A program made the position numbers and the translations under genes. Below the pieces are notes generated by a model. It was given only the letters and a program-made list of their open reading frames with translations, was not told the origin of the DNA and ran no database searches. Positions 3,241 through 26,322 of a stretch of 46,861 bases of DNA are shown one piece after another (within the stretch, counting starts at the first letter, position 1; each line of letters begins with the position of its first letter). The DNA is from Vulcanimicrobiales bacterium (GTDB lineage: Bacteria > Vulcanimicrobiota > Vulcanimicrobiia > Vulcanimicrobiales > Vulcanimicrobiaceae): assembly GCA_038231455.1 (NCBI GenBank), contig JBBRLI010000023.1:1-46861 (forward strand). Direction: 5' to 3'.

Positions 3241-3570
3241 ATGAAGCGACTTTTTGTTGCGGTCGCCATCCTGATCGGATGCCTCGCCGCCTCGCCGACT
3301 CCCACGCCGGATGCGATCGTTCGCATCCATGGGTTTGCGTTCGTGCCGAAGCGGATCGTGATCCATCCGGGAGCCCGTGTACGGTTCATCAACGATGACG
3401 GCGACGCGCACACCGCAACGGCCAAAGACAAATCGTTCGATTCGGGCGGTCTCGACACGGGCGAGTCGTGGGATCACGCGTTTTCCAAGCCCGGGACAAT
3501 CCCGTATCTCTGCGCATTGCATCCACAGATGACCGGCACGATTGTCGTGACGGCGGAGGAGAAGAAGTGA
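3241..3570 (+). CDS. Secreted cupredoxin (plastocyanin/amicyanin-like)
   Basis: Signal peptide; AHT plus YLCALHPQM type-1 copper ligands. Confidence 0.9.
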   Translation: MKRLFVAVAILIGCLAASPTPTPDAIVRIHGFAFVPKRIVIHPGARVRFINDDGDAHTATAKDKSFDSGGLDTGESWDHAFSKPGTIPYLCALHPQMTGTIVVTAEEKK

Positions 3571-4445
3571 AACGTCGTTCGTTCCTCGATCACGTCGCCT
3601 GGACTGGGACGGGTCTTATATGGACGCTTGGCGCCGGCGGGACGCTCGTTGCGACTGCCGAGGCTTCGCCCGGCCTTTCGTTCGTACAGATCAGCGATAG
3701 CCACATTGGCTTCAAGAAAGACGCGAACCCCGATGTCACCGGCACGCTTACGCGAACGGTCGAGGCGATCAACGCGCTTGCGAAGCAGCCGGATTTCGTG
3801 ATTCACACCGGCGACATCACGCATCTTTCAAAACCGGCGGAATTCGATACGGCAAAGCAAATCCTCGGCACGCTGCGCGCGCCGCTGATGACGATTCCCG
3901 GCGAACACGACGTCATTGGCGAGGGCGCGGCGACCTACGCGAGCATGTTCGGCCATCGCGATGCGACCGAGGGTTGGTACAGTTTCGATCGCGGCGGCGC
4001 GCACTTCGTCGCGCTTGTGAACGTGTTCAATTTCGAGACGGTTGGCAAGCTCGGCGCAAAGCAGATCGCGTGGCTCGAAAAAGATCTTGCAAGTGTGAAA
4101 TCTTCGACGCCGCTCGTGGTATTTGGACACGTGCCGCTCTACGCGCTCTACCCGGCGTGGGGTTGGACGACGGAAGATGGCGCGCAGGCGCTCGCCATGG
4201 TCGCGCGTTTTTCGAACGTGACGGTGCTCAACGGCCACATCCATCAGGTCTTCACGCACAGCGAAGGCAACATTCGCTTCGCAACCGCCGCTGCTACCGC
4301 ATACCCGCAAGCATCCCCCGGGGCTCCGGGCGCCGCGCCCGGTCCCAAACTGGTTCCGCCCGACCAATTGCTTCACGTCTTAGGGTATCGAACGGTGAGC
4401 GTAGCGGGAAACGGAACGACATACGACGATCATCCGCTTGGGTGA
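3567..4445 (+). CDS. Tat-exported metallophosphoesterase (calcineurin-like, CpdA/Icc type)
   Basis: GTG start overlaps upstream stop (GTGA); KRRSFL twin-arginine motif; DSH, GDI, GEHD, GH, GHIH metal motifs. Confidence 0.9.
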   Translation: MKRRSFLDHVAWTGTGLIWTLGAGGTLVATAEASPGLSFVQISDSHIGFKKDANPDVTGTLTRTVEAINALAKQPDFVIHTGDITHLSKPAEFDTAKQILGTLRAPLMTIPGEHDVIGEGAATYASMFGHRDATEGWYSFDRGGAHFVALVNVFNFETVGKLGAKQIAWLEKDLASVKSSTPLVVFGHVPLYALYPAWGWTTEDGAQALAMVARFSNVTVLNGHIHQVFTHSEGNIRFATAAATAYPQASPGAPGAAPGPKLVPPDQLLHVLGYRTVSVAGNGTTYDDHPLG

Positions 4446-4448
4446 GCG

Positions 4449-5009
4449 GTGCTCGCCGGGAGGGGCGCGATCGAAGCCGAGGATGACCGACTCGCCGACG
4501 CGTTTGCCGCATACGAGCCGGCCGCATTTGACCGCGTCTATACTCGTTACGCGGGACTGCTCGAAGTCGTCGCCGCGCGTGTCCTCGGCACGACCGCCGA
4601 CGCACGCGACTGCGTCCATGATGCGCTCGCGCGCGTGTGGGAGCGGCGTCTCTATCGGCGCGAGCGGGGACCGCTGCGCGCGTTCCTTGTGGTCTGCGTG
4701 CGGAACGACGCGCTGACGCACGTGCGCGCCGATGCTCGTCATCGCACGATCGAAGCGCACGCGCTTCCCGACGCCGTTCCACAGGACGATCGCCCCGACC
4801 CGATCGATGTCGCGCGTCTGCGCCGTGCGATCGAATTGCTGCCGAGTGGACAGCGCGATGCGCTCTCGCTTGCCTATTATGCATCTCTGTCGCAAACCGA
4901 GATTGCGGAGCGGCTCCGCGTGCCGCTTGGGACGGTGAAAAGCCGCCTCGCCGCCGCCGTACGCGCGCTCGCCGATGCTCTTGTCTCACCGAGTGAGAAG
5001 AACACCTGA
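4449..5009 (+). CDS. ECF RNA polymerase sigma factor (SigK-like)
   Basis: AFDRVYTRY..DARDCVHD region 2; LAYY..SQTEIAERLRVPLGTVKSR region 4. Confidence 0.9.
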   Translation: MLAGRGAIEAEDDRLADAFAAYEPAAFDRVYTRYAGLLEVVAARVLGTTADARDCVHDALARVWERRLYRRERGPLRAFLVVCVRNDALTHVRADARHRTIEAHALPDAVPQDDRPDPIDVARLRRAIELLPSGQRDALSLAYYASLSQTEIAERLRVPLGTVKSRLAAAVRALADALVSPSEKNT

Positions 5010-6662: not shown

Positions 6663-7685
6663 TTGGCAAGCGATGGCGGGCACAAGCAGTACGATGCGAC
6701 GCAAACCAAGCGCGATCGGGCGAAACGCGAGGGCAATAGCGCGCGTTCTCAAGAGCTCGCGGGCGTTGCTGCGTTTGCCGCTGCCGCGCTAGCGCTTTTT
6801 GCGATGCTGGCCAGTATCGGGCCGGCGATTGCGAGCGGATTTGCTTTGCAACTCCACGCGCCGACCCGGACGTTACCGATCGCGTGGCTGGCGGCCGTTC
6901 TCGCGCTCGCTCTTGCGCCGCCGCTTGCGGCTGCCGGCGCGGCAACGATCGCAACGTTCGCGCAGGTCGGCGGGATGCAGCTGAGGCCGCTAAAAATCGC
7001 GGCCGACAAAATGAACCCCGTTGCCGGGTTACAACGCATGGTTGGCCCGCAAGCTGCGGTCACGGCGCTGCGGGCCATCGTTGCATTCGGCGTTGCGGTC
7101 CTTGCAGTTGCCCCGATCGTACGCGAGACGTTCACGCGCGCCGGTTCGCTTGTTTCGGTTCCGGCATTCGCCGTGCTCGCCCGGGCGAGTGCCGAATGGG
7201 CGCTTGCGGCGGTGGTCCTCGTCGGGCTGGTCTTCGCGGGCGTCGACTACGCGCTCGTGCGCAAGAAGTGGCTCAAGGATTTGAAGATGACCCATGACGA
7301 GCTCAAACGCGATACCAAAGAGAACGATGGCGATCCGCATACGCGCGCGCGGCGCAAAACGCTTCATCGCCAATTCGTCCGCGGTTCCGTCTCCCGCGTG
7401 CGCGAGGCGGCCTTTGTCATCACCAATCCGACCCATCTCGCGATCGCTCTCAAGTACGACCCGCCGCGCGTGAGCGTTCCGGAGATCGTCGTACGCGCCG
7501 CCGACGACGCAGCGGCCCACGTCCGCGCGATTGCGCGCGAGCGTGGCATCCCGATCGTCGAGAACGTTCCGCTCGCCCGCGCGCTGTATGCAACCGGCGA
7601 AGCCGGACGACCGATTGCAAACGAACATTTTGTCGCCGTCGCACAGATCATCGCCGAGCTCGCGCGTGCGGGTGTCCTCTCGTGA
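6663..7685 (+). CDS. flhB: Type III export switch protein FlhB/SctU
   Basis: KMNPVAG, LKMTHDELKRD..ENDGDP, NPTH autocleavage motif, IPIVENVPLARALY. Confidence 0.92.
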   Translation: MASDGGHKQYDATQTKRDRAKREGNSARSQELAGVAAFAAAALALFAMLASIGPAIASGFALQLHAPTRTLPIAWLAAVLALALAPPLAAAGAATIATFAQVGGMQLRPLKIAADKMNPVAGLQRMVGPQAAVTALRAIVAFGVAVLAVAPIVRETFTRAGSLVSVPAFAVLARASAEWALAAVVLVGLVFAGVDYALVRKKWLKDLKMTHDELKRDTKENDGDPHTRARRKTLHRQFVRGSVSRVREAAFVITNPTHLAIALKYDPPRVSVPEIVVRAADDAAAHVRAIARERGIPIVENVPLARALYATGEAGRPIANEHFVAVAQIIAELARAGVLS

Positions 7686-9778
7686 AGAAGAGCGCGCTCA
7701 ACTCTCGACTGACCTACGCGTTCTCCGCAATCGTCCTTGCCATCGTCGCCATCCTTGTCGTGCCGCTGCCGCCGGTTCTTCTGGACCTCTTACTCGGCAT
7801 CAACATCTTGGGCTCGTCGCTCGTGCTGTTGATCAGCTTACGCGTGGAAGAGCCGCTCGAATTTTCCGCCTTTGCGCCTTCGCTCTTGCTCGCAACGCTC
7901 TTCCGACTCTCGCTCGATGTCAGCGCCACACGTTTGATCTTGACCGAGGGTCATGTCGTCGGCGGGGTCGGAAGCGTCATTCCAGCGTTTGGCGCGTTCG
8001 TCGTTCGCGGCAATATCGTCGTTGGCTTGATCGTCTTTGCAATTCTTATCACGATTCAGTTTGTCGTGATCGCGACGGGTGCCCAGCGCGTAGCCGAAGT
8101 GTGCGCCCGCTTCACGCTCGATGCGATGCCGGGTAAGCAAATGGCTATCGACGCGGACGTTCACGCGGGTCTCCTCGATGCCGAAGGCGCGCGGGCAAAG
8201 CGTGCGCGCGTGCAGCGTGAGGCGGATTTTTACGCGGCGATGGACGGCGCGGGCAAGTTCGTCAAAGGCGATGCCATCGCAGCGCTCGTGATTGTCGTAC
8301 TCAACCTCATTGGCGGTATCGTCGTCGGCATGGCGTACCATGGGCTTTCGCCGGTGGATGCGATCGAAACGTTTGCACTGCTCTCGATCGGCAACGCGCT
8401 GGTCACGACGCTTCCGGCATTCCTGATTTCGACAGCAATGGGGATGATGGTTACGCGTGTCGCGGGCGAAGGCGCGCTCGGCGTCGATCTTGCCATGCAA
8501 CTCATCGGCCGGCCCGACGTCCTGCGTTCCGCAGCGGTGCTGATGTTGCTCTTGGGCTTCGTGCCCGCATTACCCGGCCCGGTCTTCTTCGGTTTAGGTG
8601 CGGCCGCTCTTGGCGCAGCGCAACTCGCGCACAAGCGCAACTCCGCCATGACCGCGCAACTCCTTGCCGATCGCGAACGGTCGCGGAAAAATAGCGTGCG
8701 ACGGCCGGAGATGGCGCTCGCGCTCGTCGGTGTCGATGCGATCTCCATCGATTTTGGGGTCGAACTCTATCCGCTGCTGAACGCACCGAGTGCCGATGCG
8801 CTGCTCGATCGCATCGGCGATGTCCGTCGGGCGCTTGCGGCGGAGATCGGCCTGGTTATCCCCGGCGTGCGACTGCGCGACGACGGGATGCGCGATCCGC
8901 ACACCTATGCGATCCGCGTGCGTGATGAGATCGTAGCCGAAGGAACGCTTCGCCTCGACGCGTTGCTCGCCGTCGCGGACCCGGCGGCACTTGATGCCCT
9001 TGTCGGAACCTCGACGCACGAACCCGTCTACGGGCTTCCGGCAAAGTGGATTGCCGTTGGTGCGCGCGATGAAGCGATGCGCGCTGGTGCGCTCACCTTC
9101 GATGCGATTTCAATCGTTGGTTCGCATCTTTCCGATGTCGTTCGCCGTCACGCCGCATCGCTGCTCGGGCGCCAGGAGTTCCACACGCTCGTCGAACATC
9201 TGCGCGCGACGGTCCCCTCGCTTGTAAAAGATCTCGGATCGGATTTGCTCCCGATCGCAACGGCGCATCGTGCGTTCGTGTATCTGCTACGAGAAGGGGC
9301 GTGGCCGCGCGATCCGATCGCCGTGCTCGAAGCGATGCTCGATGCCGCCGCGACGACCCGCGAACCGCGCGAACTTGCCGAGGCGGCACGCCGCGCGATC
9401 GTGCCGCAGCAATTTCGTCGCGAGGGCCTTCGCACGATCGCCCCACTCATCTTCGACCCCGTTTTTGAAGCGGAACTTGCGCGCATGTGGAGTCCATCCG
9501 GCGGACTTGCGCCCGACCCCTCAACTGCGCTGCACGTGCGCGGCTGCGTCGAGAATTACCTTGCCAAGCCGATCGACGTCGCGCATGCGATTGTTTGCAC
9601 CGCTGCGCTGCGGCCGATGCTCAGCGACTTTTTTGAAAAAACCGGACTAACGATTGCCGTGTACGCGTATAACGAACTTCCCGCGCAAATGGAGTTGCGG
9701 GCAGCCGGAGTGATCGCACAGAAAAAAGAGACCGTGGCGCTCTCCCGCCTCGCATCCGCAAGTGGCTCCTTATCCTAG
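7682..9778 (+). CDS. flhA: Type III export protein FlhA/SctV
   Basis: FRLSLDVSATRLIL, RVAEVCARFTLDAMPGKQMAIDAD, FYAAMDGAGKFVKGDA motifs. Confidence 0.95.
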   Translation: MKKSALNSRLTYAFSAIVLAIVAILVVPLPPVLLDLLLGINILGSSLVLLISLRVEEPLEFSAFAPSLLLATLFRLSLDVSATRLILTEGHVVGGVGSVIPAFGAFVVRGNIVVGLIVFAILITIQFVVIATGAQRVAEVCARFTLDAMPGKQMAIDADVHAGLLDAEGARAKRARVQREADFYAAMDGAGKFVKGDAIAALVIVVLNLIGGIVVGMAYHGLSPVDAIETFALLSIGNALVTTLPAFLISTAMGMMVTRVAGEGALGVDLAMQLIGRPDVLRSAAVLMLLLGFVPALPGPVFFGLGAAALGAAQLAHKRNSAMTAQLLADRERSRKNSVRRPEMALALVGVDAISIDFGVELYPLLNAPSADALLDRIGDVRRALAAEIGLVIPGVRLRDDGMRDPHTYAIRVRDEIVAEGTLRLDALLAVADPAALDALVGTSTHEPVYGLPAKWIAVGARDEAMRAGALTFDAISIVGSHLSDVVRRHAASLLGRQEFHTLVEHLRATVPSLVKDLGSDLLPIATAHRAFVYLLREGAWPRDPIAVLEAMLDAAATTREPRELAEAARRAIVPQQFRREGLRTIAPLIFDPVFEAELARMWSPSGGLAPDPSTALHVRGCVENYLAKPIDVAHAIVCTAALRPMLSDFFEKTGLTIAVYAYNELPAQMELRAAGVIAQKKETVALSRLASASGSLS

Positions 9779-10867
9779 AACGATCCAGTTCACAATTTTG
9801 GCGGTCGTGCCGTTGCTGTAGGTAAGCGTTCCGTTACCGGATGTGTCGAGCGTGAATGTGGCAACCGACTTGCCGGTATCTGTTTGCAAGATCGTTCCAC
9901 TGGCCGCCGAAACCGTGACGGTCGCATCTGCGGCCGCGTCGGCTAAGGTCAAGCTGTTGGCCGTAAACGCACCGTCGAAGAGACTGTCTGTAACGGTTCC
10001 GCTGAAGATAGCTCCGCCGTTCGAGGGGGCGCCTACGATCACCCAATTCTCGGTAGCCATTGCGAGGCTAAGGGTCCCAGCGGGCGCGGTATATGACGAA
10101 ACCCGCCCGACGATCGAAGAGGTGACCCATGGTGCCCCGAGCCGTGAGATGGGCGAAAGAGTAAAATTCAGCGTTGCTCCAACGTCCTGTACTAGTGCGC
10201 TCAAATGGGTTACGTCGGCGGCAGTGCACGAAATCGACGGATTGGGTGCCGTGCACGACACGCCCGCAGACGCGACGTTCGCAGACGTTGAACTCGGTGC
10301 GTCCGATGCGAGAACCATTGTACCAGCGGAACCGCCGGTCGTGGCTGCGATTGTCTGGTAGTCAACGATCGTTCCGTCGAGCGATCGATACGTCACCGTT
10401 CCGGTGATCGAAGCAGTCGTGGACGATGTTGCGAGAATGTCGGAATACGAATCTCGGGCCAGCTGGATGCAAGCGGTATCGTAGAACCATCGGATCGAGA
10501 GCTGCTTCTCGGTTGCGCTCACCGCGATGACGGCCGACTCGACTCCGCGCGAACAAGATGAGTACGTAAAGGCCGAGCGTTCTCGTATCCCTTTTGTAAT
10601 GCGGGCAGTGCCCCCGCGAGCGCCCGCCATTACGGCGCGTGCCGCAGTTTGAATCGAATTCTGATCGACAACAATGCCGCGCGACGCTTGAGCGGCATTT
10701 CCGATTACGCGGAGCGTTTCGCTTGCGATGTACCGCTGCGTTGCAATCGATTGAATCGCGGCGACCGTTGGCGTCGCGATCGGCGTGCTCACCGGTGAAC
10801 TCCCGCCGCCACCGCCACACGCAGACACGCAGAGCGTCGCGATAAAAAGAAGTCCCGTCTTCTTCAA
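9770..10867 (-). CDS. Ser/Thr-rich lipoprotein, allele A (unknown function)
   Basis: AAGGAAG RBS then TTG at 10867: MKKTGLLFIATLCVSAC-GGGGGSS lipobox; homologous end to end to 11176-12324. Confidence 0.85.
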   Translation of the reverse strand: MKKTGLLFIATLCVSACGGGGGSSPVSTPIATPTVAAIQSIATQRYIASETLRVIGNAAQASRGIVVDQNSIQTAARAVMAGARGGTARITKGIRERSAFTYSSCSRGVESAVIAVSATEKQLSIRWFYDTACIQLARDSYSDILATSSTTASITGTVTYRSLDGTIVDYQTIAATTGGSAGTMVLASDAPSSTSANVASAGVSCTAPNPSISCTAADVTHLSALVQDVGATLNFTLSPISRLGAPWVTSSIVGRVSSYTAPAGTLSLAMATENWVIVGAPSNGGAIFSGTVTDSLFDGAFTANSLTLADAAADATVTVSAASGTILQTDTGKSVATFTLDTSGNGTLTYSNGTTAKIVNWIVLG

Positions 10868-10955
10868 AATGCACTTCCTTACAACCGTAGGCTTTATCAA
10901 GAAGATCCGTATTTACCTCGGTCGTAACGAGCGGTGCCTGCTTGCGCTCCGTTGG

Positions 10956-11108
10956 TTAGATGGCAACGCAATCGGGGCAACGCCCGGTAATCGTCAGCGC
11001 GATGTCGACACCGGTATACCGGCACGCGCCCGCGATCGTCGATGCGATTGAGGCGACTTCGGGTGCCTGCACGTTGAGGATCGTGCCGCGCTTCTCACAC
11101 ACGAAGTG
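10956..11108 (-). pseudogene. Fragment of the fur-family gene 3' end (50 codons + stop)
   Basis: HFVCEKRGTILNVQAPEVASIASTIAGACRYTGVDIALTITGRCPDCVAI* aligns without gaps to 12402-12554; in-frame stop four codons upstream. Confidence 0.93.
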
Positions 11109-11160
11109 TCGGATCTGCTACCGATCGCGACGGCAATTGCGCACGGCGGGAGTAATCGGA
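11109..11160 (+). pseudogene. Two fused flhA fragments
   Basis: 11109-11134 matches flhA 9239-9264 (23/26 nt, SDLLPIAT); 11137-11160 matches 9695-9718 (18/24 nt, LRTAGVIG vs LRAAGVIA). Confidence 0.75.
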
Positions 11161-11175
11161 TCGCTCGTTTCTTCG

Positions 11176-12324
11176 CTACCCGAGAAGATTATAATGTACG
11201 ACTTGGGCTCCCGAGCCATTACCGTATGTTATCGTCCCGCTTCCGGTCGAGTAAAGGGTGAACGTTGCGACGGTTTTGCCGGTTGATGTTTGTGTGATCG
11301 TCCCGTTTATGATGCCGCCTAGGGATGTTGCGACCGTTGCCGTCGCGTCGGCCGAGGTATCGGCAAGCGAAAAGTTCGTCGAAATCAGCGTGCCATCTGC
11401 GGTGTAGACAAATGTTCCGCTGAAACTGGACCGGTCGGTAGGTGACGCGCCGACGAGGCTCCAGGCGGGCAGATTTCCCGGTAGGATGCTCAAGCTTCCA
11501 GCGGCTCCGGTGAACGCCGCCGCCGTCCCGCTGATGGGAACGGTGACCGTGGGGGCTGCAGTACGCGAACTAAGAGACGAAACCGTCACGTCGAGCGCGG
11601 CGCCGATGTCCGCAGGAAGCGCCGTCAAACGGATGACGTTCGCACCGCCGCACGAAATTGAAGTCGACGAAATAACGCACGAAACCCCAGAAGAACTCGT
11701 CTTTGGCGACGTCGAACTTGCGGCTTCGGAAGATGTCAACGTGAAGTTGCTGTTGGAACCTCCGGTGCTTGAAACGACAAACGCCAGCGTCTGATAATCG
11801 TAGACGTCTCCGCCGAGTAAGGTAGAGGTTTGTGTTTCAGTAATCGATGCGCTTAAGGCTGAAGTTGCGATGATGTCGATGACCGAATCTTGGAAGAGCT
11901 GCGTGCAGGCCGTGTCGTAAAACGTTCGCCCGTAGACTTGAACTTCCGTGCTACTCACAGTAACGGTCGCGCTTTCGGCGCGGTTCGCACATGCGGAATA
12001 CGAAACGGCTGATGCGCTCCGTGTCCCGTGAGGAATGCGCGAGGCGCCTTCGTGCCAGCCGGACATTGCGGTGCGTGCTCCGCTTTGCACCGAACGCCCG
12101 AGACTTGCGACACCAGTGTATCGAGCGCCGAATCCAAATGCTGTCTCCGACAAGCTGGCGACGGCGAGCATTTCGCTTGCAACCGAACGTTGTGTTGAGA
12201 CAGATTGAATGGGAACAGCGGTCGGCGTAGGTGATGGGACCGGCATCGTACTCGGCGAACTTCCGCCACCGCCGCCGCACGCGGTTAACAAGCAGGTAAT
12301 AAAAAGAAGTCCCGTCTTCTTCAA
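11176..12324 (-). CDS. Ser/Thr-rich lipoprotein, allele B (unknown function)
   Basis: AAGGAG RBS, TTG start, MKKTGLLFITCLLTAC-GGGGGSS lipobox; first 26 coding nt identical to allele A. Confidence 0.88.
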   Translation of the reverse strand: MKKTGLLFITCLLTACGGGGGSSPSTMPVPSPTPTAVPIQSVSTQRSVASEMLAVASLSETAFGFGARYTGVASLGRSVQSGARTAMSGWHEGASRIPHGTRSASAVSYSACANRAESATVTVSSTEVQVYGRTFYDTACTQLFQDSVIDIIATSALSASITETQTSTLLGGDVYDYQTLAFVVSSTGGSNSNFTLTSSEAASSTSPKTSSSGVSCVISSTSISCGGANVIRLTALPADIGAALDVTVSSLSSRTAAPTVTVPISGTAAAFTGAAGSLSILPGNLPAWSLVGASPTDRSSFSGTFVYTADGTLISTNFSLADTSADATATVATSLGGIINGTITQTSTGKTVATFTLYSTGSGTITYGNGSGAQVVHYNLLG

Positions 12325-12401
12325 TGTCCGCTCCTTTACAAGCCCATTACTGTTTCAGAGGGGAGAAGGCACTTCCCGCGTGTTTTCGGTTTCGAGCGGG
12401 G

Positions 12402-12818
12402 TTAAAGAGCAACGCAATCTGGGCAGCGCCCCGTGATCGTCAGCGCGGTATCGACACCGGTATACCGGTACGCACCGGCGATCGTCGATGCGATCGAGGC
12501 GACTTCGGGTGCCTGCACGTTCAGGATCGTGCCGCACTTCTCGCACACTAGGTGATGGTGTTTATCGAGCGCTGCTTCATAGCGCGCCGCGGACCCCGCG
12601 TGCGAGAACATTTGCACGAGCCCGATTCCGCGCAGAATATCGAGCGTGCGGTAGATCGTTCCCAGGCTTACGCCGGGTAAGTTCGCGCGCACGCGCTCGT
12701 GGATCGTTTCTGCCGTGAGGTGCGAGCCGTCTTCGAGGGCGCGCAAGATTGCCGCACGCTGCTTCGTGAGGCGGTAGCGTGTTTGCAGGAGTCCTGCATC
12801 AACACCCTTAGCGTCCAT
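12402..12818 (-). CDS. Fur-family transcriptional regulator (Fur/PerR/Zur)
   Basis: RLTKQRAAIL, HLTAE, SLGTIYRTL, HHHLVCEKCG, RCPDC; GGAGG RBS before ATG 12818. Confidence 0.93.
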   Translation of the reverse strand: MDAKGVDAGLLQTRYRLTKQRAAILRALEDGSHLTAETIHERVRANLPGVSLGTIYRTLDILRGIGLVQMFSHAGSAARYEAALDKHHHLVCEKCGTILNVQAPEVASIASTIAGAYRYTGVDTALTITGRCPDCVAL

Positions 12819-12858
12819 TCGCCTTCCTCCGACTCCCACTTGACCGACCGAGGATCGT

Positions 12859-12887
12859 TTGACGGGGGATAGCCAGCCTGCTACAAT
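12859..12887 (+). promoter_or_regulatory. Sigma70-type promoter for secD operon
   Basis: TTGACG-N17-TACAAT with TG extended -10. Confidence 0.75.
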
Positions 12888-12919
12888 GCGTTAGTTTCCC
12901 CCTTCCCGAAGTTGCATGC

Positions 12920-14194
12920 ATGTGGAATAGGCTCAAAACGCCCCTCAAGGCGCTACTCGTTGTCGCCATTGTGGCGCTTTGCGTCTGGTCGATCACCCCG
13001 ATCGGTCAGAAGGTAAAACTCGGACTCGACCTGCAAGGCGGTTCGCGTCTTTTACTGCAGCTCCAGACCTCGCCCGAGGTTCCGAAGATTACTGCGGACA
13101 TTCAGGGGCAAGTCGAGGACGTCGTTCAGCGACGCGTCAACGGCTTAGGTGTCTCCGAGCCGATCATCTCGCGCGTTGGCAGCGACCGGCTCCTCGTGGA
13201 ACTTGCAGGTCTCAAGAATTCCGATGAAGCCGAGCGCCTCCTTAAAGAGGCAGCGGTTCTCGAGTTCAAGATCATGCCGGAGAAAATCCAGCAAAAAGCG
13301 GCGGTCGATTTGAAATATGCCGCCGATCCGAATGGCGCGTATAAAGATTCCGGTCCGGTCGTCTATACCGGCGCCGAGTTGAAGGCCGCCCAGCCGAGCT
13401 TCGGCCCGACCGGTCAGCCGATCATCACGTTCCAAACGAAAGACCCGAAGAAATTCGGCGAGCTGACGAGCAAGAACATCGGCCACTGGCTGGCGGTGTT
13501 CCTCGATAAGAAGCTCATTAATGATGCCATCATCGAATCGACAATCACGAGCGACGGTCAAACCACCGGCAGCTTCACCGAAGAAGACGTCATTCGAATT
13601 GCGACCGAGCTGAACGCGGGCGCCCTGCCCGTCTCGCTCAAGATCATCGAGAATTCGTCCGTCGGCCCGACGCTTGGCGCAATCGACTTACAAAAGTCCA
13701 TGGTCGCATCGGCGATCGGTCTTGCCCTCGTGCTCATCTTCATGGTCGTCGTCTATCGTTTGCCGGGTTTGCTCGCCGATTTCGCGCTGATCATTTACGT
13801 GCTCATGCTCCTTGGCTTGCTTGCGATTAACCACGCCGTGCTGACGCTGCCGGGGATCGCGGGCTTTGTGCTCTCGATCGGTATGGCGGTCGATGCCAAC
13901 GTCCTGATCTTCGAACGCATGAAAGAAGAAATCTGGGCCGGCAAATCGCTGCGGACCGCGGTGAAGACGGGCTTTGCTCGCGCGTTTACGTCAGTCTTCG
14001 ACTCGCACTTCACGACGATCGTCGGTGCGGGCGTGTTGTTCTTACTCGGAACCGGCACGGTTAAAGGCTTTGCGTACACGCTCTTCTGGGGAACCGTGTT
14101 TTCGCTCGTCACCGCCGTGTTCATCACGCGCTTCTTCACGGACGTGGTCGTCGATAACGATCTGGTCACGGATACGAAAGCGTACGGAGCCTAA
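12920..14194 (+). CDS. secD: Protein translocase subunit SecD
   Basis: LGLDLQGG, RRVNGLGVSEP, GALP, VGPTLG, GMAVDANVLIFER, VKGFA. Confidence 0.96.
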   Translation: MWNRLKTPLKALLVVAIVALCVWSITPIGQKVKLGLDLQGGSRLLLQLQTSPEVPKITADIQGQVEDVVQRRVNGLGVSEPIISRVGSDRLLVELAGLKNSDEAERLLKEAAVLEFKIMPEKIQQKAAVDLKYAADPNGAYKDSGPVVYTGAELKAAQPSFGPTGQPIITFQTKDPKKFGELTSKNIGHWLAVFLDKKLINDAIIESTITSDGQTTGSFTEEDVIRIATELNAGALPVSLKIIENSSVGPTLGAIDLQKSMVASAIGLALVLIFMVVVYRLPGLLADFALIIYVLMLLGLLAINHAVLTLPGIAGFVLSIGMAVDANVLIFERMKEEIWAGKSLRTAVKTGFARAFTSVFDSHFTTIVGAGVLFLLGTGTVKGFAYTLFWGTVFSLVTAVFITRFFTDVVVDNDLVTDTKAYGA

Positions 14195-14197
14195 GCC

Positions 14198-15556
14198 ATG
14201 TTCTTTCGTCGCCTCAATTGGAACGTTGTCGGCTGGCTAAAAACCGTCTCGCTCGTCTCGACGATTCTCATCGCGCTCGGTATCGCGATGATGGTCTACA
14301 ACATGTTCACGATCCATCAACCGCTCAAGCTCGGTCTCTCCTTCACCGGCGGCACCGACGTGACGGTGAAGTTCAAGAACAGCGTTACGCCCGATCAGAT
14401 TCGCGCGGCACTCGCGCCGCTCGGCGTGAACGACGCGACCGTCACGACGATCGCCAAAACCGGCGACACCGGGACCGAGCGTTATTCGATCGGCACGCAG
14501 CACGATTTCGGCGATAGCGCTCCGCAGCTGTGGTCGGCACTCAATTCCGTTGCACCCGTCGACCGCGATCAGTCGCAAGTCGAGGCCGTCGGCCCCTCGC
14601 TCTCGCATGAGTATCTGATCAAGGCGCTCGAAGCGCTCGTGATCGCGATCGTCATCCAGTTCGTGTACATTGCCTTCCGCTTTGGGTGGAATGTTAACTT
14701 CGGCTACGTGACCGTGATCGCGCTCGTTCGCGATTCGCTGATGATGATCGGGATCTACGCGCTCGCGCAGAAGCGTGTCGACGACGCGTTCCTGGCTGCC
14801 GTGCTGACCGTCATCGGGTACTCGGTCATGGATACGATCGTCATCCTCGATCGTATTCGCGAGAATACGAAGCTGATGGCGACTGAAGCTTACGATACGA
14901 TCGTCAACACCTCGATTCTTCAAACGATGACGCGCTCGGTGAACACCCTTGCCACCGTCGTCGTGACGCTCGTTGCCTTGCTCGCGCTCGGCGGCGCGTC
15001 GCTGCAGAACTTCGCGTTTGCGCTGCTCGTGGGCATTTGCTCGGGCGGCTACCACTCGATTTTCTTCTCGGCTCCGCTCGTCGCGCAGTTCCAACGCAAC
15101 AACGCGAAAAAAGAACTCGAACGCCGCGAAGAAGCGCGCACGACCGGTGCACGCACGGTCGCCGAAGCACGACTTGCCGGCAAGACACCCGCCGAACGCG
15201 ACGCGATTGCGGCCGCCCGCCGCGAGCGTCGCGAACGCGAACGCCGCGACGTCGTTCGCTCGACGCAGGCGCCGACGCGGTATAAGAAGCGTCGTCCCGA
15301 ACGTGGCACCGGTGCGATCGGCACGGCCGAACCCGAGCTCGATCTTGACGAGCAGCACGATCACGACATCGAGCACTCGGAAATGCACGGTCAGGAAATC
15401 GATCCGCTCGACGCGCAGGCCTTGGGTCACCATGACTCTGCCTACGAAATGGGCCACGAAGAGATCGTCTTGAATCTCGAACCGCTCGACGAACACGAGC
15501 ATGCCGCGCCTCCGGCACCGGATGTCCATCCAAAAACCGAGCCGCACGACAAGTAA
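14198..15556 (+). CDS. secF: Protein translocase subunit SecF with long charged/His-rich C-terminal tail
   Basis: LGLSFTGGT, VGPS, YIAFRF, IGYSVMDTIVILDRIREN, QTMTRSVNT. Confidence 0.95.
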   Translation: MFFRRLNWNVVGWLKTVSLVSTILIALGIAMMVYNMFTIHQPLKLGLSFTGGTDVTVKFKNSVTPDQIRAALAPLGVNDATVTTIAKTGDTGTERYSIGTQHDFGDSAPQLWSALNSVAPVDRDQSQVEAVGPSLSHEYLIKALEALVIAIVIQFVYIAFRFGWNVNFGYVTVIALVRDSLMMIGIYALAQKRVDDAFLAAVLTVIGYSVMDTIVILDRIRENTKLMATEAYDTIVNTSILQTMTRSVNTLATVVVTLVALLALGGASLQNFAFALLVGICSGGYHSIFFSAPLVAQFQRNNAKKELERREEARTTGARTVAEARLAGKTPAERDAIAAARRERRERERRDVVRSTQAPTRYKKRRPERGTGAIGTAEPELDLDEQHDHDIEHSEMHGQEIDPLDAQALGHHDSAYEMGHEEIVLNLEPLDEHEHAAPPAPDVHPKTEPHDK

Positions 15557-17516
15557 GAACCTCCCGCCTCCGACTCCGTCGGAGGCGGCTTTCGATGCGC
15601 TGCTCGCATCGTTTGAGGATCCGCGCCCGCCGGTCCGGCAAAAGCCGCCGGGCGAAGATCTCGAACCGGTGAAGTCGTTTCTCGCCGAACTCTACGCGCG
15701 GCGCGATGAGTTTCTCGACGGCGATCGCTATCGGACGATCGGCGATGCGAGCGAATTTTTCACGAAGGTCGCCGGCGTCTCGTTCGAAGGCCGTCAGGAT
15801 GTGCTCGGTGGGATGCGCGCGGGCGAGCCGCTTGACCTCGTGCGCCAGCCGGAGAACCCGCACGACGTAAACGCGGTCGCTGTCTACTACGGCACGCTCC
15901 ACGTCGGTTACATCAAGAAAGAAATCGCCCGCCGCATTGCGCCGAATATCGACGGCGGTGAACGCTACCGCGCAAGCGTTACGGACGTAACGGGCGGCGG
16001 CACGCGGCACTGGGGCATCAATATTCTCGTGCACCGCGAACGCACGCGAGCCGCGTCGACGCGCGTGCGCGACGAAGGCGTTCCGGCAACACGCGATGAC
16101 ATACGTGCCGCGCTAATCGGCGAGCGTCTCCCGCGCGACGCGCAACTCGCCGTACTCGAACGAATCGATGCAGGGAGTAATACGCTGGCGATCCTCGGTA
16201 CCGGCCGCGGGAAGTCGTTTTGTTTTCAGTATCCCGCCGCAGTCCGCGCGCTCGAACGCAGCGAGAAGACGATCGTCCTCTATCCGCTGCGGGCCCTTGC
16301 AAACGACCAGTACGAAGCACTGCAGCGGCGACTTGGCCCGCTCGGACTGCGCATCTTCCGAGCGAACGGTGCGATCGATGAGAACGAACGTGCTGACCTC
16401 ATGGATGCGCTCGAAAGCGGTGCGTGGGATATCGTCTGCGCGACGCCCGAGTTCTTGCAGTATCATCTCGACCGCTTTCGTAGCGAGGAGAGCCGTCCGA
16501 GCCTCGTCGTCGTCGATGAGGCCCACCATCTCGACGATGCCAAACGCCGCCCCGCGTACGGGAAGATCGGCGATGCACTGGCCGCGCTTGGCAATCCCCA
16601 AGTTCTCGCACTCACGGCAACCGCCGACGATGAGGTCTTTGAGAAAATTCGCAGCTCGATGAACATCGATGCATGGGTGATCGATCCGACGGTTCGTGAA
16701 AATCTAAGCGTAGTTGATGCGCGCGGAGTGAAAGACAAACTTGCCTATATCGACGAGCGGTTACGCGGCGGCGGAAAGGCGATCGTGTACTGCAATTCGC
16801 GCACCGAGGCGACGAAGCTTGCGGAGAAATTGCGCGCACGCAACGGCGATACGGTGGCGTTCTATCATGCCGGTCTTGGAATTCCGGAACGGGCGCAGGT
16901 TGAAACGCTTTTTCGCGAAGGCGCGCTCTCGACCGTCGTTGCGACGTCTGCGTTTGGCGAGGGGATCGATTTGCCAGACGTGCGGCATGTTTTTCTGTAC
17001 CATCTCAATTTCAATTTTACGGAATTCAATCAGCAGGCCGGGCGTGCGGGACGCGATGGCGGCTCCTCCGAGATCCACTTGCTCTTCGGCGAAAGCGATC
17101 GCCGCATCAACGATTACATCATCGCAAAGTCCGCGCCGACCATCGCGACGCTACGTGCACTCTATCGCGCGATGAAGGGCCTGACAACGGACGATACCCT
17201 GCGCATGGCCTATACGGATATCGCGGCGACCCTCGAAATGGATATGGTTGACGGCTCGACGGTCGGGACGGCCGTACGCATCTTCGATGATGCGGATATC
17301 GTCCAGGTTGGTACCGACGATGACGGTCGCTTCGTGCGCTTTATCGAGGTGAAAGAAAAGCTCGATCTGACGCGAAACGCGCGTTATGCCGAAGGCGAAG
17401 CCGACCGCGAGAGCTTCGAGCAGTTCTGTTCGCTGGTACTCACGGCAAAACCCGAGGTGCTCGAGTCGGTGATCAATCGCCCGATTTATCCCGCACGCGT
17501 CGCGCTGATGCGCTAA
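15522..17516 (+). CDS. HIRAN-domain + RecQ-like DEAH helicase (start uncertain: 15501/15522/15669)
   Basis: FFTKVAGVSFEGRQ..LVRQPENPHDVNAVAV..VGYI (HIRAN); GTGRGKS, DEAH, LTATA, HAGL, ATSAFGEGID, QQAGRAGRDG. Confidence 0.88.
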   Translation: MSIQKPSRTTSKNLPPPTPSEAAFDALLASFEDPRPPVRQKPPGEDLEPVKSFLAELYARRDEFLDGDRYRTIGDASEFFTKVAGVSFEGRQDVLGGMRAGEPLDLVRQPENPHDVNAVAVYYGTLHVGYIKKEIARRIAPNIDGGERYRASVTDVTGGGTRHWGINILVHRERTRAASTRVRDEGVPATRDDIRAALIGERLPRDAQLAVLERIDAGSNTLAILGTGRGKSFCFQYPAAVRALERSEKTIVLYPLRALANDQYEALQRRLGPLGLRIFRANGAIDENERADLMDALESGAWDIVCATPEFLQYHLDRFRSEESRPSLVVVDEAHHLDDAKRRPAYGKIGDALAALGNPQVLALTATADDEVFEKIRSSMNIDAWVIDPTVRENLSVVDARGVKDKLAYIDERLRGGGKAIVYCNSRTEATKLAEKLRARNGDTVAFYHAGLGIPERAQVETLFREGALSTVVATSAFGEGIDLPDVRHVFLYHLNFNFTEFNQQAGRAGRDGGSSEIHLLFGESDRRINDYIIAKSAPTIATLRALYRAMKGLTTDDTLRMAYTDIAATLEMDMVDGSTVGTAVRIFDDADIVQVGTDDDGRFVRFIEVKEKLDLTRNARYAEGEADRESFEQFCSLVLTAKPEVLESVINRPIYPARVALMR

Positions 17517-17519
17517 GTC

Positions 17520-17861
17520 TTAGAGCTTGCGCAAGTAGCGGAAGGCAAAATAGCTCGCCACGAGCACGGGGCCGATCTCGGCGCCGACGCCGATCGCGAT
17601 GACCGCATTTTTTGGGAGACTCGCCGCAAGACCGCGGATCGCACCGGCAAACGAGAACATCGCGATTGCCGCAACGATCATGCACTTGCCCGCGTAGGCA
17701 TTCGCATCGAACCAGATCGCGCGGCTACTTAGCGTCTTTGGCGTGCGAAAGCCGTAAACAGCGTTGGGCGGTACTTTGCGAATGGCAAGCGGCAGCGCGA
17801 CGATCAAAACCAAGAATGAGAGCGTCGCGATCGAGCCTGCAAGAAACGCCGTGAAGGTCAC
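17520..17861 (-). CDS. SdpI/YhfL-family membrane protein
   Basis: PPNAVYGFRTPKTLSSRAIW..AN..AG motif, 3 TM segments. Confidence 0.82.
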   Translation of the reverse strand: MTFTAFLAGSIATLSFLVLIVALPLAIRKVPPNAVYGFRTPKTLSSRAIWFDANAYAGKCMIVAAIAMFSFAGAIRGLAASLPKNAVIAIGVGAEIGPVLVASYFAFRYLRKL

Positions 17862-20281
17862 TTGGCGGTAGCCGTTTGTTTTGCGCCCGGACCGATGTAC
17901 TTATTGAGCCAGTCGACCATCTCGGCAAGCGTCGTCTCGACGGACTCGCGGCCGAGATATCCGTGCGCTTCGTCGGGCAACATCACCAAGCGCGCGGTGC
18001 CGCCGTTGCCCTGGATTGCCGCGTACATCCGTTCCGACTGAATCGGGAACGTGCCCGTGTTGTCGTCTTTCATCCCGTGGATCATCAGCATCGGATCTTT
18101 AATCGCGTTGGCATACGTGAAGGGCGACATCTTGGTGTAGAGGTCGGTCGCCTCCCAATAGCTGCGCCGCTCGCTTTGGAACCCAAACGGCGTGAGCGTG
18201 CGATTGTAGGCGCCGCTGCGCGCGATGCCCGCTTTGAAGATGCGCGTGTGCGCGAGCAAGTTTGCCGTCATGAATGCGCCGTAGCTATGGCCGCCAACGG
18301 CCACGCGGTTCGGATCGGTTACGCCCATTTCGACGGCCTTGTCCACGGCAGCTTTCGCGCCGGCGACCAGCTGCTCGACGTACGTGTCGTTCACCGTTGC
18401 CGGATCGCCGACGATCGGAATCGCCGCATTATCGAGCACGGCATATCCGGCCAGCGCCATGAGGATCTCCGATGCGTTGCCGCCGACCGTCGTGAACGTC
18501 TGCGTGTTGTTCGTATTCTGGCTAGCGACGCTGCGATCGATGAATTCCGCGGGGTACGCCCACACGAACGTCGGCAGTTTCTGCCCGGGCTGATAGTTGG
18601 GCGGAAGATAGAGCGTAAACGAAAGGTCGACGCCGTCGGGACGCTTGTACGAGACGACTTTGCGTTGAACGGCGCGCATCTGCGGCGTAGGATCGACAAA
18701 ATGCGTGATCGCGCTGGCCTCTGCGTTTCCGGTGCGCACGTAGAGATTTGGCACCATCGTGGGCGATTGACGCTGTGTGAGCATCTTGGTTCCGTGCGCG
18801 TCAAGAAGCGCATACGGGACTTCGAGTGGATCGAGTGCCGAGACGAAGATGCGCTCTTTTTTCATTGTCGTGAGATCGAAGCGATCGACGAACGGCCGCC
18901 GGCCGTCGGGACCGAATCCGGCTCCCGCAAGAAAGAGCGTGTTGCCGTCATGCGCGATGACGGCTTCGCCGTTTGCAGCAGAGACGGTGAGTGGCGTGCC
19001 GGGATCGCCATAGCGATCGCCATCGCGCAGCGAGCCGAGCTGAACTTCGCTGCCCGGCGTACGCGAATCGATGAGTGTCGTCGTCGTCAGTCGTGTCGTG
19101 CGGTCGTAGGAACGAACGATCGCGCGTGGATCGCCCTGGAGCCACGTGATGTCGCGCGCGCGGTTGACGATGGAATCGAGTTCGTGCGAGGTGCCGGTGA
19201 ACGGCGCATCGAGCGCGACGATGCGATCGCGGTGCGCGGCGACCGTTTTCGGATCGCCGCCGTCGAGCGCTTCAAACCACGTAAGCGTCGCGGGTGCGCT
19301 GTTTGCCCACGTTACATCGCGCGGTGTCGTCGGCACACCGTCGGTCGGCAGATGGTCTTCGAGCGGCTCGTCGACGATTGTCTTCACCGCTCGGCCGGCA
19401 CGATCGATGACCGCGATCTTCGTCGGGAAGCGGTCGTACGGAAAAAGATACGAAAACGGGCGATGCAACGTCTCGGTGAGAATGTACGCGCCGCTGGGCG
19501 ACACCAATGCGCTTGTGATCTCCGCCGCATTTCCGAGCGGCGTCACCGTGCCGCTGGCGATGGCGACGGCTGCGAGTTGCGATGTGCCGTAGTATTCGAA
19601 GAGATCTTCGTCGTGCGGGTTGGCGAGGAGATCTTCGTACGTGACGATGGCGCCGGCTTTGCCGCTGGTCTCTTGCACGACGGGGCCGATCGGGGTGAGC
19701 GCTTCGCGGGGCTCGCGCAAGCGCTTCGGCGGCACTTCTTTGATTAAAAGCGATTTACTATCGGGCATCCACGCGATCGGCGAACCGAAAACGCCGTTGA
19801 GGTGAACGCCGCCGATTTTTTGCGGTTTTGCAGCGCCCGTCGCTACGACGTAAAGATCGATCGACGATGCGGTCGCATTTGAAAACGCAACGTGCCTGCC
19901 ATCCGGGCTCCAGCGAACGGAGGTGATGTGCGCGTTTGGCGGCAGCGCGACGGTCGTCGTCCCTCCGCCCGCCACCGACTGGAACGCAAGCGAGGTGTAG
20001 GCGCTTTGATGGTGGATGCCGTCGTTTTTCGGATCGATCCGGATGCCGGCCAGCCGCAGCATGGGCTTCGCGAGATCCGCGACGGGCGGGTAGCGCAGCG
20101 GGACGAGAATCGCGATTGCGTCTTTGGTGGGACTGAGCGAGGTCACCGGCAGTGGCGGCGCCTTGAGGATGTCCTCAATTGCCGAGGGCGGTTGGCGGTA
20201 CCGAACCGCGTCGGCAAGCGCCGGCGGTGCGACGATCGCAGCGGTAAGAAAAAAAGCAAAGCCCGTACGAAGCGCGTTCAT
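17858..20281 (-). CDS. Secreted S9-family prolyl oligopeptidase / glutamyl-peptidase-like enzyme
   Basis: Signal peptide, beta-propeller region, GGHSYGAFM nucleophile, ARSGAYNRTLTPFGFQ, HG..DDN, EAHGY. Confidence 0.92.
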   Translation of the reverse strand: MNALRTGFAFFLTAAIVAPPALADAVRYRQPPSAIEDILKAPPLPVTSLSPTKDAIAILVPLRYPPVADLAKPMLRLAGIRIDPKNDGIHHQSAYTSLAFQSVAGGGTTTVALPPNAHITSVRWSPDGRHVAFSNATASSIDLYVVATGAAKPQKIGGVHLNGVFGSPIAWMPDSKSLLIKEVPPKRLREPREALTPIGPVVQETSGKAGAIVTYEDLLANPHDEDLFEYYGTSQLAAVAIASGTVTPLGNAAEITSALVSPSGAYILTETLHRPFSYLFPYDRFPTKIAVIDRAGRAVKTIVDEPLEDHLPTDGVPTTPRDVTWANSAPATLTWFEALDGGDPKTVAAHRDRIVALDAPFTGTSHELDSIVNRARDITWLQGDPRAIVRSYDRTTRLTTTTLIDSRTPGSEVQLGSLRDGDRYGDPGTPLTVSAANGEAVIAHDGNTLFLAGAGFGPDGRRPFVDRFDLTTMKKERIFVSALDPLEVPYALLDAHGTKMLTQRQSPTMVPNLYVRTGNAEASAITHFVDPTPQMRAVQRKVVSYKRPDGVDLSFTLYLPPNYQPGQKLPTFVWAYPAEFIDRSVASQNTNNTQTFTTVGGNASEILMALAGYAVLDNAAIPIVGDPATVNDTYVEQLVAGAKAAVDKAVEMGVTDPNRVAVGGHSYGAFMTANLLAHTRIFKAGIARSGAYNRTLTPFGFQSERRSYWEATDLYTKMSPFTYANAIKDPMLMIHGMKDDNTGTFPIQSERMYAAIQGNGGTARLVMLPDEAHGYLGRESVETTLAEMVDWLNKYIGPGAKQTATAK

Positions 20282-20331
20282 TGGAAACGCGTTCCGCTTG
20301 ATGCCCTCGGGTCCTTTGCCTAGTGGGCCAG

Positions 20332-21156
20332 CTAGCGGAGGGCCTTTGCTTGCGCGTTTCGGCCGAGTCGCTTGGTGATGGTCTCCGGAAAGAGTCGCGC
20401 GGCGATGTCGATCTTTTTTGCATCGCTGCCGATGAGCACGCGATTCTTGTTCTTGCGAATTCCACGCAGGATCTCGGCCGCCGCGACCTCCGGTGTGGTG
20501 GTGAGGAAGCTCTCTTCGAAACGCGCGGTCATCTTCGCGGCGCGTTCCGGGTCAACCGAGGTTGCCACGCGAGCGCTGCGTGCAATCGCCGTTGCGATGC
20601 CGCCCGGGTGCACCGTGCAGACGTGCACGTTCGTATCCGCAAGCTCGCCGCGGAGCGATTCGCTAAAGCCGCGTACCGCAAATTTGCTGGCCGCATACGC
20701 GGACTGGCCGGGTGGCGCGTAAATACCAAAAATGCTAGAGATGTTCACGATCGAGGCCTCCGGCTGCGCGATGAGCGTCGGTAAGAACGCCCGCGTGCCG
20801 TAGACCGTGCCCCAAAAATTGATGTCGAAGAGCCACTTCATCTCGTCGGTCGTGAGTTCGGCGATCGTGCCGAAGAGCGCGACGCCCGCATTATTGATGA
20901 CGATATCGACTTTGCCGTGCGACCCGACGACGTCGACGGCGAAGTGGTTCACCGCTGCCTCGTCGCTCACGTCGAGTTCGTGGAGCGTCACGTTGCCAGC
21001 GTTCTTCCCGAGCAACGCCAGCGTCTCTTCAAGCGCGCTCGTATTTCGGTCCGCAAGCGCAAGATGGGCACGTTTACGCGCAAGCTCGATCGCTAAGGCG
21101 CGCCCGATTCCGGAGGCCGCTCCCGTGATGACGCAGACGCGTCCTTTGAACTTCAT
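20332..21156 (-). CDS. Short-chain dehydrogenase/reductase
   Basis: ITGAASGIG, NNAG, YAASK. Confidence 0.92.
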   Translation of the reverse strand: MKFKGRVCVITGAASGIGRALAIELARKRAHLALADRNTSALEETLALLGKNAGNVTLHELDVSDEAAVNHFAVDVVGSHGKVDIVINNAGVALFGTIAELTTDEMKWLFDINFWGTVYGTRAFLPTLIAQPEASIVNISSIFGIYAPPGQSAYAASKFAVRGFSESLRGELADTNVHVCTVHPGGIATAIARSARVATSVDPERAAKMTARFEESFLTTTPEVAAAEILRGIRKNKNRVLIGSDAKKIDIAARLFPETITKRLGRNAQAKALR

Positions 21157-21237
21157 TCCGCGAGGTTGGAGCGGCCGGTCATGCCTCCCTTCGAGGGCGA
21201 GAAGGCGTAGCGCGAAATCGCGCGCAACGGAGCGAGC

Positions 21238-22143: not shown

Positions 22144-22162
22144 GTACGAAGTGCGATCGGAG

Positions 22163-23353: not shown

Positions 23354-23514
23354 CATCATCCTCAAGGTGTGCGTGATGAACGCCTACTGCGACCACTCGA
23401 GCCGACGGCTAGGGGCATCTTTGGAACAAAACGGGCTTTCGAGGAGTATCAAGGAAACCGACCGACCGACCCGTCGCGGTGTGCGGGGGGCGTCTACTGA
23501 TTGTGAGGCACGCT

Positions 23515-26249: not shown

Positions 26250-26270
26250 CCGACGCCTCGCACGCCGGTC

Positions 26271-26316
26271 CGGGGTTCGTTCTTTGCTCGCTACGGCGAG
26301 TGCGGAACGGACCCCG
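26271..26316. terminator. Long hairpin between convergent genes
   Basis: CGGGGTTCGTTC..CTCGC-TACG-GCGAG..GAACGGACCCCG with C(UACG)G loop; no U-tract. Confidence 0.55.
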
Positions 26317-26322
26317 TATTCG

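Follow-up and report, generated by a model that had tools for sequence, protein, structure and literature searches.

Layout of the locus

The DNA between flhA and fur in this genome raises a question of origin. Short second copies of both genes lie there, and they could stem from a duplication of the genome's own DNA or from a related lineage. All coordinates, those of the remnant included, are positions in the window (the whole stretch of 46,861 nt that was analysed) unless stated otherwise, and this genome is called G000. On the plus strand, the order is flhA(+), lipoA(-), an 88-nt spacer, the fur copy(-), the flhA copy(+), 41 nt, lipoB(-), fur(-), secD, and secF. The features are as follows.

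7682..9778, plus strand: resident intact flhA, an open reading frame with 84% amino acid identity to the flhA of the same-genus genome G001; its bases 9239-9264 are the parent of the 26-nt flhA piece
9770..10867, minus strand: lipoA, the lipoprotein gene of the left unit, an open reading frame of 365 aa from TTG 10867
10868..10955, minus strand: spacer from the remnant stop codon to the lipoA start, barely alignable to the spacer between fur and lipoB
10954..11108, minus strand: fur 3'-end remnant, 50 codons with a TAA stop (10956-10958) and 2 further bases, corresponding to residues 96-145 of resident Fur and matched by BLASTN to 12400-12554
11108..11109, no strand: join point, where the alignments' offset to both parents switches at exactly this base pair
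11109..11134, plus strand: internal piece of flhA, codons 520-528, a copy of 9239-9264 (23/26) on the same strand
11135..11175, no strand: unassigned 41 nt between the flhA piece and the lipoB stop codon, homology undetectable
11176..12324, minus strand: lipoB, the lipoprotein gene of the right unit, an open reading frame of 382 aa
12402..12839, minus strand: resident intact fur (Fur/Zur/PerR family; Pfam PF01475, E 1.5e-27), of which the last 51 codons (12402-12554) are the parent of the fur remnant

The two remnants had been picked out by eye in the first-pass annotation, and BLASTN finds both of them. Within the window, the fur remnant is identical to resident fur at 137 of 155 nucleotides (88.4%, 0 gaps, E 1e-53). 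The flhA piece has E 0.001 against the whole window, and its match begins at the base directly after the fur match. The remnant thus totals 181 bases, with no indel within them. The base equivalent to 12554 in fur is fused to the base equivalent to 9239 in flhA, and the microhomology at the joint is 0 nt. Both pieces keep the strands of their parents, and their order is that of a unit end (fur) followed by a unit start (flhA). No further copy of either piece was found in the 3.71-Mb assembly, where the next matches are at most 26 nt long with E of at least 0.014.

The DNA on either side of the join holds homologous cargo, as lipoA can be aligned with lipoB over the whole length (46% identity, E 3e-74). 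The 181 bases are the seam of a head-to-tail repeat with two units, each composed of the 3' part of flhA, a lipoprotein gene, and the 3' part of fur. The left unit has flhA whole and ends in a fur stump. The right unit starts with an flhA stump and has fur whole. Join points of tandem repeats at which the flanking genes are truncated are a known kind of structure. The right unit lacks about 0.5 kb of the expected 3' part of flhA at 11135-11175, where only 12 of 41 positions match the equivalent flhA tail (chance level) and BLAST gives no match. Most of the flhA part of the right unit was deleted after the join.

The spacers of the two units have fared differently from the coding remnant. In a global alignment, the 88-nt spacer and the spacer between fur and lipoB give 50 matches in 61 aligned columns, with 43 gap columns, for a score of 1.0 vs -7.2 +/- 3.8 for shuffled sequences. 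The edge of similarity is sharp at the remnant stop codon, with the coding remnant gap-free and the adjoining spacer (77-88 nt) barely alignable. From its letters, the remnant looks like a dead, non-coding scar and not a new gene.

Several smaller features surround the seam. The stop codon of resident flhA overlaps the lipoA stop codon on the opposite strand. The C-terminal tail of FlhA (9700-9778) is 9 residues longer than in G001 and in the metagenome contig L016, and its sequence is also different. A plus-strand open reading frame of 51 aa (11106-11261) opens with the flhA piece (MSDLLPIATA...) and ends within lipoB, antisense to the last part of that gene. Nothing marks it as more than a by-product of the seam. 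The start codon of lipoA is probably TTG 10867, which has AAGGAAG upstream and a protein start, MKKTGLLF, as in lipoB, and not TTG 10900. Likewise, fur probably starts at ATG 12818, behind GGAGGAAGG, and not at GTG 12839.

The fur/flhA spot in relatives

Only one same-genus genome, G001, was present among the 40 relatives searched. Its flhA and fur flank one lipoprotein gene, fur is matched only once, and there is no remnant. The L016 contig encodes a Fur that is 94% identical, and its fur and flhA stand tail to tail with no lipoprotein gene between them. A scan of metagenome contigs for Fur gave 320 relatives, of which 80 loci were kept, and none of the 80 has a second fur piece or a lipoprotein homolog. 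Among the 24 loci of species genomes that carry a member of the lipoprotein family, the gene lies beside fur in one, that of G001. The double-unit structure is derived. In G001, a gap of 9 nt that contains AGGAG separates the fur stop codon from the lipoprotein start codon, and co-transcription of the two genes is therefore probable there.

The convergent gap between fur and flhA is variable. In many of the 80 loci (for example L016, L018, L019, and L067), flhA ends about 30-100 nt from fur. In L064, L071, L072, L074, and L090, the gap holds 1-2.4 kb of unrelated DNA. Across the 80 metagenome loci and 24 genome loci compared, a lipoprotein gene in this gap is seen only in G000 and G001.

Silent and replacement changes in the remnant

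The fur remnant and resident fur differ in 16 codons, 11 of them by silent and 5 by replacement changes. These hold 18 base differences with no indel, and the TAA is kept. The five replacements are L->F, C->R (in the first CxxC), Y->C, T->I, and L->I. This is exactly the count that had been made by hand in the first-pass annotation, and its statement that all three differences in the flhA piece are synonymous is confirmed as well. The first base of the piece is codon position 1 of codon 520, and the translation is SDLLPIAT in both copies. By the NG86 method, the fur remnant and resident give Sd 13, Nd 5, S 40, N 110, dS 0.426, dN 0.047, and omega 0.11. A codon alignment with dN/dS had been proposed as a check, and the ratio obtained is not near 1.

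When a pseudogene fragment is compared with its living parent, a low pairwise dN/dS makes the fragment seem more constrained than it is. The living gene accounts for half of the path between them, so changes should be polarised with outgroups before a foreign origin is inferred. Here, the low ratio is partly trivial because half of it is the resident's own silent drift. The analysis of the remnant draws on 50 codons, two outgroups (G001 and L016), and the contigs of one sample. When polarised with these outgroups, the remnant branch has 5 replacements and 4-6 silent changes, and the resident branch has 7-9 silent changes and 0 replacements. The silent states that are the remnant's own are at alignment sites 12, 78, 120, and 123. 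In the flhA piece, at least 2 of the 3 differences arose in resident flhA, and the piece still has the bases seen in G001 and L016. For the fur remnant, constraint is relaxed along its own branch, and one change there removed a zinc-binding Cys.

A null history was simulated in which the remnant is neutral from birth, resident fur evolves with omega 0.038 and kappa 2.35, and equal time passes on both. In this history, about 17 differences are expected to comprise about 6.4 silent and 10.5 replacement changes. The simulated probability of an Nd of at most 5, given 16-20 differences, is 0.0005-0.005 for t of 0.05-0.16 and 0.0000 at t of 0.20. A codon likelihood analysis was also run on the tree ((remnant,resident),G001,L016), in which each of the three full genes contributed 138 codons and the remnant 50. 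The background omega is 0.038 and that of the remnant branch is 0.23. That the remnant branch shares the background omega can be rejected (p 0.028). With its length free, an omega of 1 on this branch is not rejected (p 0.148), and a binomial test gives p 0.03-0.20 according to the assignment of 2 ambiguous sites. If the sister branches are also given equal silent-scale lengths, an omega of 1 can be rejected (p 0.012 with 1 df, 0.04 with 2 df). In a two-phase model, in which purifying selection is followed by neutrality, 26% of the time since the split falls in the neutral phase, with a profile range of about 5-74%.

The silent excess is real, with significance near the 1% level for the 50 codons. 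The argument that neutral decay of a dead duplicate should give mainly non-synonymous changes holds up, with a remnant dead from birth rejected at p of about 0.003 in the simulation and 0.012-0.04 by likelihood. The step from there to divergence inside functional genes of a related lineage can be kept only in part. The silent excess supports it, but much of the silent change lies on the resident branch, and the remnant-branch omega of 0.23 is not separable from 1 unless equal time is imposed (p 0.148).

Age of the two lipoprotein genes and of their seam

The proteins of lipoA and lipoB are 46-49% identical, and lipoB is 57-58% identical to the single lipoprotein of G001. The signal peptide of lipoA is lipobox-like and ends in ACGGGGG. 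Members of the family have a lipobox followed by a Gly run, and they have a conserved C-terminal block, TG.TVATFT.D.SGNGTITYSNGT. No Pfam family was found for these lipoproteins. The family records whose titles name a taxon are all from Vulcanimicrobiota/Eremiobacterota MAGs, mostly in unrelated contexts. A third, distant copy (27%) is present on another contig of this genome (G000:C28:25537-26586).

The silent sites of these genes can be set against those of the remnant. At four-fold sites of conserved codons, lipoA and lipoB differ at 68 of 120 (0.567) vs 8 of 29 (0.276) for the remnant and resident fur (Fisher p 0.007). The lipoprotein value stays at 0.57-0.61 in runs of 3-5 identical residues. 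Divergence of either lipoA or lipoB from the G001 gene is 0.57-0.58, equal to that between lipoA and lipoB. The 8/29 of the remnant does not differ significantly from the 33/85 for the fur genes of G000 and G001 (p 0.37). Decay of the remnant is about 0.045 per replacement site. The clock of remnant decay and the clock of silent divergence between the joined genes differ by roughly an order of magnitude.

A simple tandem duplication gives one age for all of its parts. The locus resembles the join point of an illegitimate tandem duplication in its head-to-tail units, its one novel seam, its truncated breakpoint genes, its intact outer copies, and its absence of microhomology. It differs in that the cargo is only 46-49% identical with silent sites near saturation, while the remnants are at 88% with a silent bias. 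Equal age of all unit parts is expected of such a join point and is not what is found here (0.567 vs 0.276). Self-duplication creates the genes and the seam simultaneously, so the mismatch in age between lipoA/lipoB and the seam favours prior divergence of the units.

A recent self-duplication could be retained if the silent excess were sampling noise in 50 codons and the lipoproteins had changed fast under diversifying selection. The remnant is indeed closest to the resident genes, and the lipoproteins are fast between species too (lipoB vs the G001 gene, dN 0.34, omega 0.25). However, the simulation leaves little room for such noise (p 0.0005-0.005), and selection on the protein cannot lift the four-fold divergence at conserved residues to 0.57-0.61 vs 0.28 in the remnant. 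The spacer is also deeply diverged. A recent duplication is therefore considered improbable.

Grouping of the remnant and the case for conversion

Informative sites group the fur fragment with resident fur at 5, the fragment with G001 at 2, and the resident with G001 at 1. The five derived sites common to the remnant and resident fur include an I->V change at codon 34. The flhA piece has 2 derived bases in common with resident flhA. The alternative fur topologies, with G001 and L016 as the other lineages, are not rejected in AU tests (p 0.12-0.29). In the first-pass annotation, closeness of the fragment to resident fur, together with a dN/dS near 1, had been named as speaking against a foreign source. 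The first of these is seen in the 5:2:1 split of sites, at the AU values given, and the second is not. As the remnant groups with the resident, any donor lineage would be closer to G000 than G001 is. With such a donor, and with lipoA no closer to lipoB than the G001 gene is, the lipoprotein alleles would have to predate their flanks.

The lipoprotein genes give the tree (lipoA,(lipoB,G001)) with support 86/87. A clade of lipoA and lipoB is not rejected (p-AU 0.12), and the genes form a near-trichotomy. The search for a donor of lipoA among 5.8 billion proteins returned lipoB as the best relative (47%), followed by proteins at 41%. No closer copy of lipoA was found in G000 or G001, and neither a lipoA-type gene nearer than lipoB nor a second fur fragment turned up among the 80 metagenome fur loci or the 24 genome loci.

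These groupings would also result from an old tandem duplication within the lineage, at about the time of the lipoA/lipoB split and near the split of G000 and G001. One unit would then have been lost in G001, and the remnants would have been homogenised by repeated conversion from the resident genes and have drifted only after conversion ceased. The sister position of the remnant to resident fur with 5 shared derived sites, the 2 derived bases shared by the flhA piece with resident flhA, and the near-trichotomy of the lipoproteins (p-AU 0.12 for lipoA with lipoB) are all as such a history predicts. The sharp edge at the stop codon could be that of a tract confined to the conserved coding part. 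In addition, the repeats are direct and only 1.3 kb apart.

The distribution of the changes does not fit conversion as well. After conversion, changes in the remnant and the resident should stand at about 3.8:1 (all 150 sites in the remnant vs about 40 silent sites in the resident), and the observed counts are about 9-11 to 7-9. The failure of this expectation is the same test that rejects a remnant dead from birth, and it weighs against conversion. No tract is visible, as the 18 differences are evenly spread with a longest clean run of 27 nt (P 0.48). The longest identical run is now only 26 nt, and two separate short remnants would both need converting. Old duplication with conversion is thus a possible but clearly less likely history, and it is the most serious of the alternatives.

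Proposed joining of diverged units

The account that appears to fit best is that the two units were already diverged when they were joined, as alleles of a variable fur/flhA spot from two close lineages; from the patterns in the sequence, its chances are put at about even. The two units would be diverged alleles of one fur/flhA spot in closely related lineages, and would not have been born identical at the seam. They would have been joined in one event of DNA uptake and recombination. One possible route is a homologous crossover in a flanking core gene together with one illegitimate end-join, that is, homology-facilitated illegitimate recombination. In a second, a single crossover would integrate DNA that had been circularised. 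Divergence of the fur and flhA pieces from their resident counterparts would have taken place mostly while both were still working genes, leaving silent changes only. Free decay of the remnant would have begun only at the join and would have given the 5 replacements (about 0.045 per replacement site). The lipoprotein tree points weakly to lipoA and the remnant as the incoming unit.

No other single account covers the two clocks, the silent bias, the absent indels, and the sharp edge at the stop codon as well as a joining of diverged units does, although it is about as apt to be wrong as right. Counting against it are the derived sites that the remnant and the flhA piece share with the resident genes and the fact that a donor was not found. 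The claim that the remnants are foreign rather than self-duplicated is supported in part, and foreign can only refer to a very close relative. The far greater silent divergence of lipoA and lipoB than of the remnant agrees with it, and the grouping of the remnant with resident fur and the missing donor do not. A sliding comparison of 60 codons along flhA was made for a crossover point, and none was found, with G000, G001, and L016 equidistant throughout and no shift after codon 520.

Allelic replacement of variable surface-protein islets occurs via recombination in flanking core genes. The locus is alike in that the spot between fur and flhA is variable and its cargo is far more diverged than the flanks. 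It differs in that the incoming allele would have been added beside the old one instead of replacing it, and it is because of this that a seam would exist. A diverged pair is stable as soon as it arises; identical 1.9-kb tandem repeats, by contrast, are lost before long.

In homology-facilitated illegitimate recombination, as outlined in PMC3240628, one end is homologous and one end is illegitimate. At this locus, an anchor in a flanking core gene and one illegitimate join would add a foreign unit in one step and leave a single interior-to-interior seam with little or no microhomology. The joint at 11108|11109, with its 0 nt of microhomology, is of this form, and the flanking fur and flhA offer homologous anchors. 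In contrast to the process set out in that source, the donor here was not found, the host is an uncultured Vulcanimicrobiota (Eremiobacterota) bacterium, and the event is read from divergence patterns only.

Duplication seams are seldom preserved well enough to be dated, and here the decay of the remnant can be read against the age of the joined genes. If the units were indeed joined after they diverged, a bacterium can gain a stable, already-diverged paralog in one step from the DNA of a close relative. Such a pair would be spared the instability of an identical tandem duplication. The convergent fur/flhA gap would then be a spot where surface lipoproteins are swapped and added in Vulcanimicrobiota. 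The locus has no known bearing on health or technology.

Assembly of the repeat

The genome is a metagenome-assembled draft of 106 contigs. An assembly chimera, in which alleles of one locus from two co-existing strains were stitched in tandem, has to be considered in such a draft, as two strains' alleles would show precisely this kind of divergence under purifying selection. A Logan contig of 14,019 nt, however, spans 8500-13200 unbroken, with 6 base differences, no gap, and no difference in the remnant. It is an independent assembly of the one public run that contains the stretch. The run is probably the source sample, so the contig stands for a second assembler and not for a second sample. 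The other contigs of the same run have no match of at least 85% to the fur, flhA, or lipoprotein genes beyond snippets of 33-44 nt. No word of more than 26 nt is common to the remnant and fur, a length below that of the 31-letter words ascribed to the run index. A seam between two gene interiors, with a 0.5-kb deletion after it, is not something that an assembly graph creates. A chimera is therefore very improbable, the least probable of the alternatives weighed here.

A search for RNA runs with the stretch found none, the sole public holder being one DNA run kept as contigs. The public runs X2 and X3 have next to none of the words of the stretch.

Possible function of the remnant

Resident Fur matches solved structures of Zur (3mwm), Nur (3eyy), PerR (2fe3), and Fur. 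Within this family (PF01475; 3mwm, 3eyy, 2fe3), the remnant represents the C-terminal dimerisation part, starting at the first CxxC and including the rest of the protein. It is without the DNA-binding domain, the HHH motif, one Cys of the zinc site, a ribosome-binding site, and a match at the Pfam threshold. As far as its sequence can tell, the remnant is a fragment of a Fur family member, and neither a member itself nor a credible mini-protein.

The remnant could nevertheless be kept by selection, either as a leader or promoter of lipoA left from a fur-lipoprotein operon, or as a translated 48-aa C-terminal Fur peptide that disturbs Fur dimers. The remnant branch is short with an omega below 1 (0.23), there is no indel and no stop codon within its 50 codons, and fur and the lipoprotein gene of G001 are probably co-transcribed (9 nt, AGGAG). 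Fixing omega at 1 with a slowed rate costs only 1.05 log units of fit relative to the free model. If a selected 48-aa peptide did pair with full-length Fur, a fragment of the regulator would have been recruited as its own antagonist.

The signals that a working gene or leader should have are missing. The 48-aa open reading frame from GTG 11102 (to 10956) exists as described in the first-pass annotation, and its lack of a clear ribosome-binding site is borne out. There is no Shine-Dalgarno sequence before GTG 11102, which is preceded by GCAGATCCGACACTTC, whereas lipoA has AAGGAAG (7 nt before TTG 10867), lipoB has AAGGAG, and fur has GGAGGAAGG. An in-frame stop codon lies three codons upstream, at 11118-11120. 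The C->R change takes one of the four Cys of CxxC...CxxC, and the HHH motif just upstream is cut off. The 50-aa translation has no Pfam hit at E <= 0.01. The dominant-negative Fur mini-protein that had been put forward as an alternative is not supported, given the missing Shine-Dalgarno sequence, the lost zinc-site Cys, and the lack of a Pfam hit. No promoter-like or terminator-like site was found on the minus strand in or beside the remnant. The RNA fold of the interval from the lipoB stop to the lipoA start has a z of -0.47, which is not above the stability of shuffled sequences, and Rfam gave no family, the only hit (a snoRNA, E 0.58) being elsewhere. The remnant-branch omega is significantly above the fur background (p 0.028). 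Selection acting on the fur piece would also leave the flhA piece unexplained. It is unlikely, to about the same degree as a recent duplication, that selection has kept the remnant.

Silent divergence along the window

The silent divergence between G000 and G001 is uneven. In 12402-15556, dS is 0.61 for fur, 0.56 for secD, and 0.55 for secF. For flhA and the genes at 15501-30239, dS is about 1.0-1.2, and for the genes at 3468-5009 it is 0.43-0.68. The low dS of fur, secD, and secF could reflect codon-usage constraint or a more recent exchange between the lineages. Import of the fur-secD-secF tract from a G001-like donor in the same event as the join was considered and rejected, as it is the remnant, and not the resident, that is nearer to G001 at silent sites. 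The Sd to G001 is 14.5 for the remnant vs 19 for resident fur, and the resident and G001 have only 1 informative site in common.
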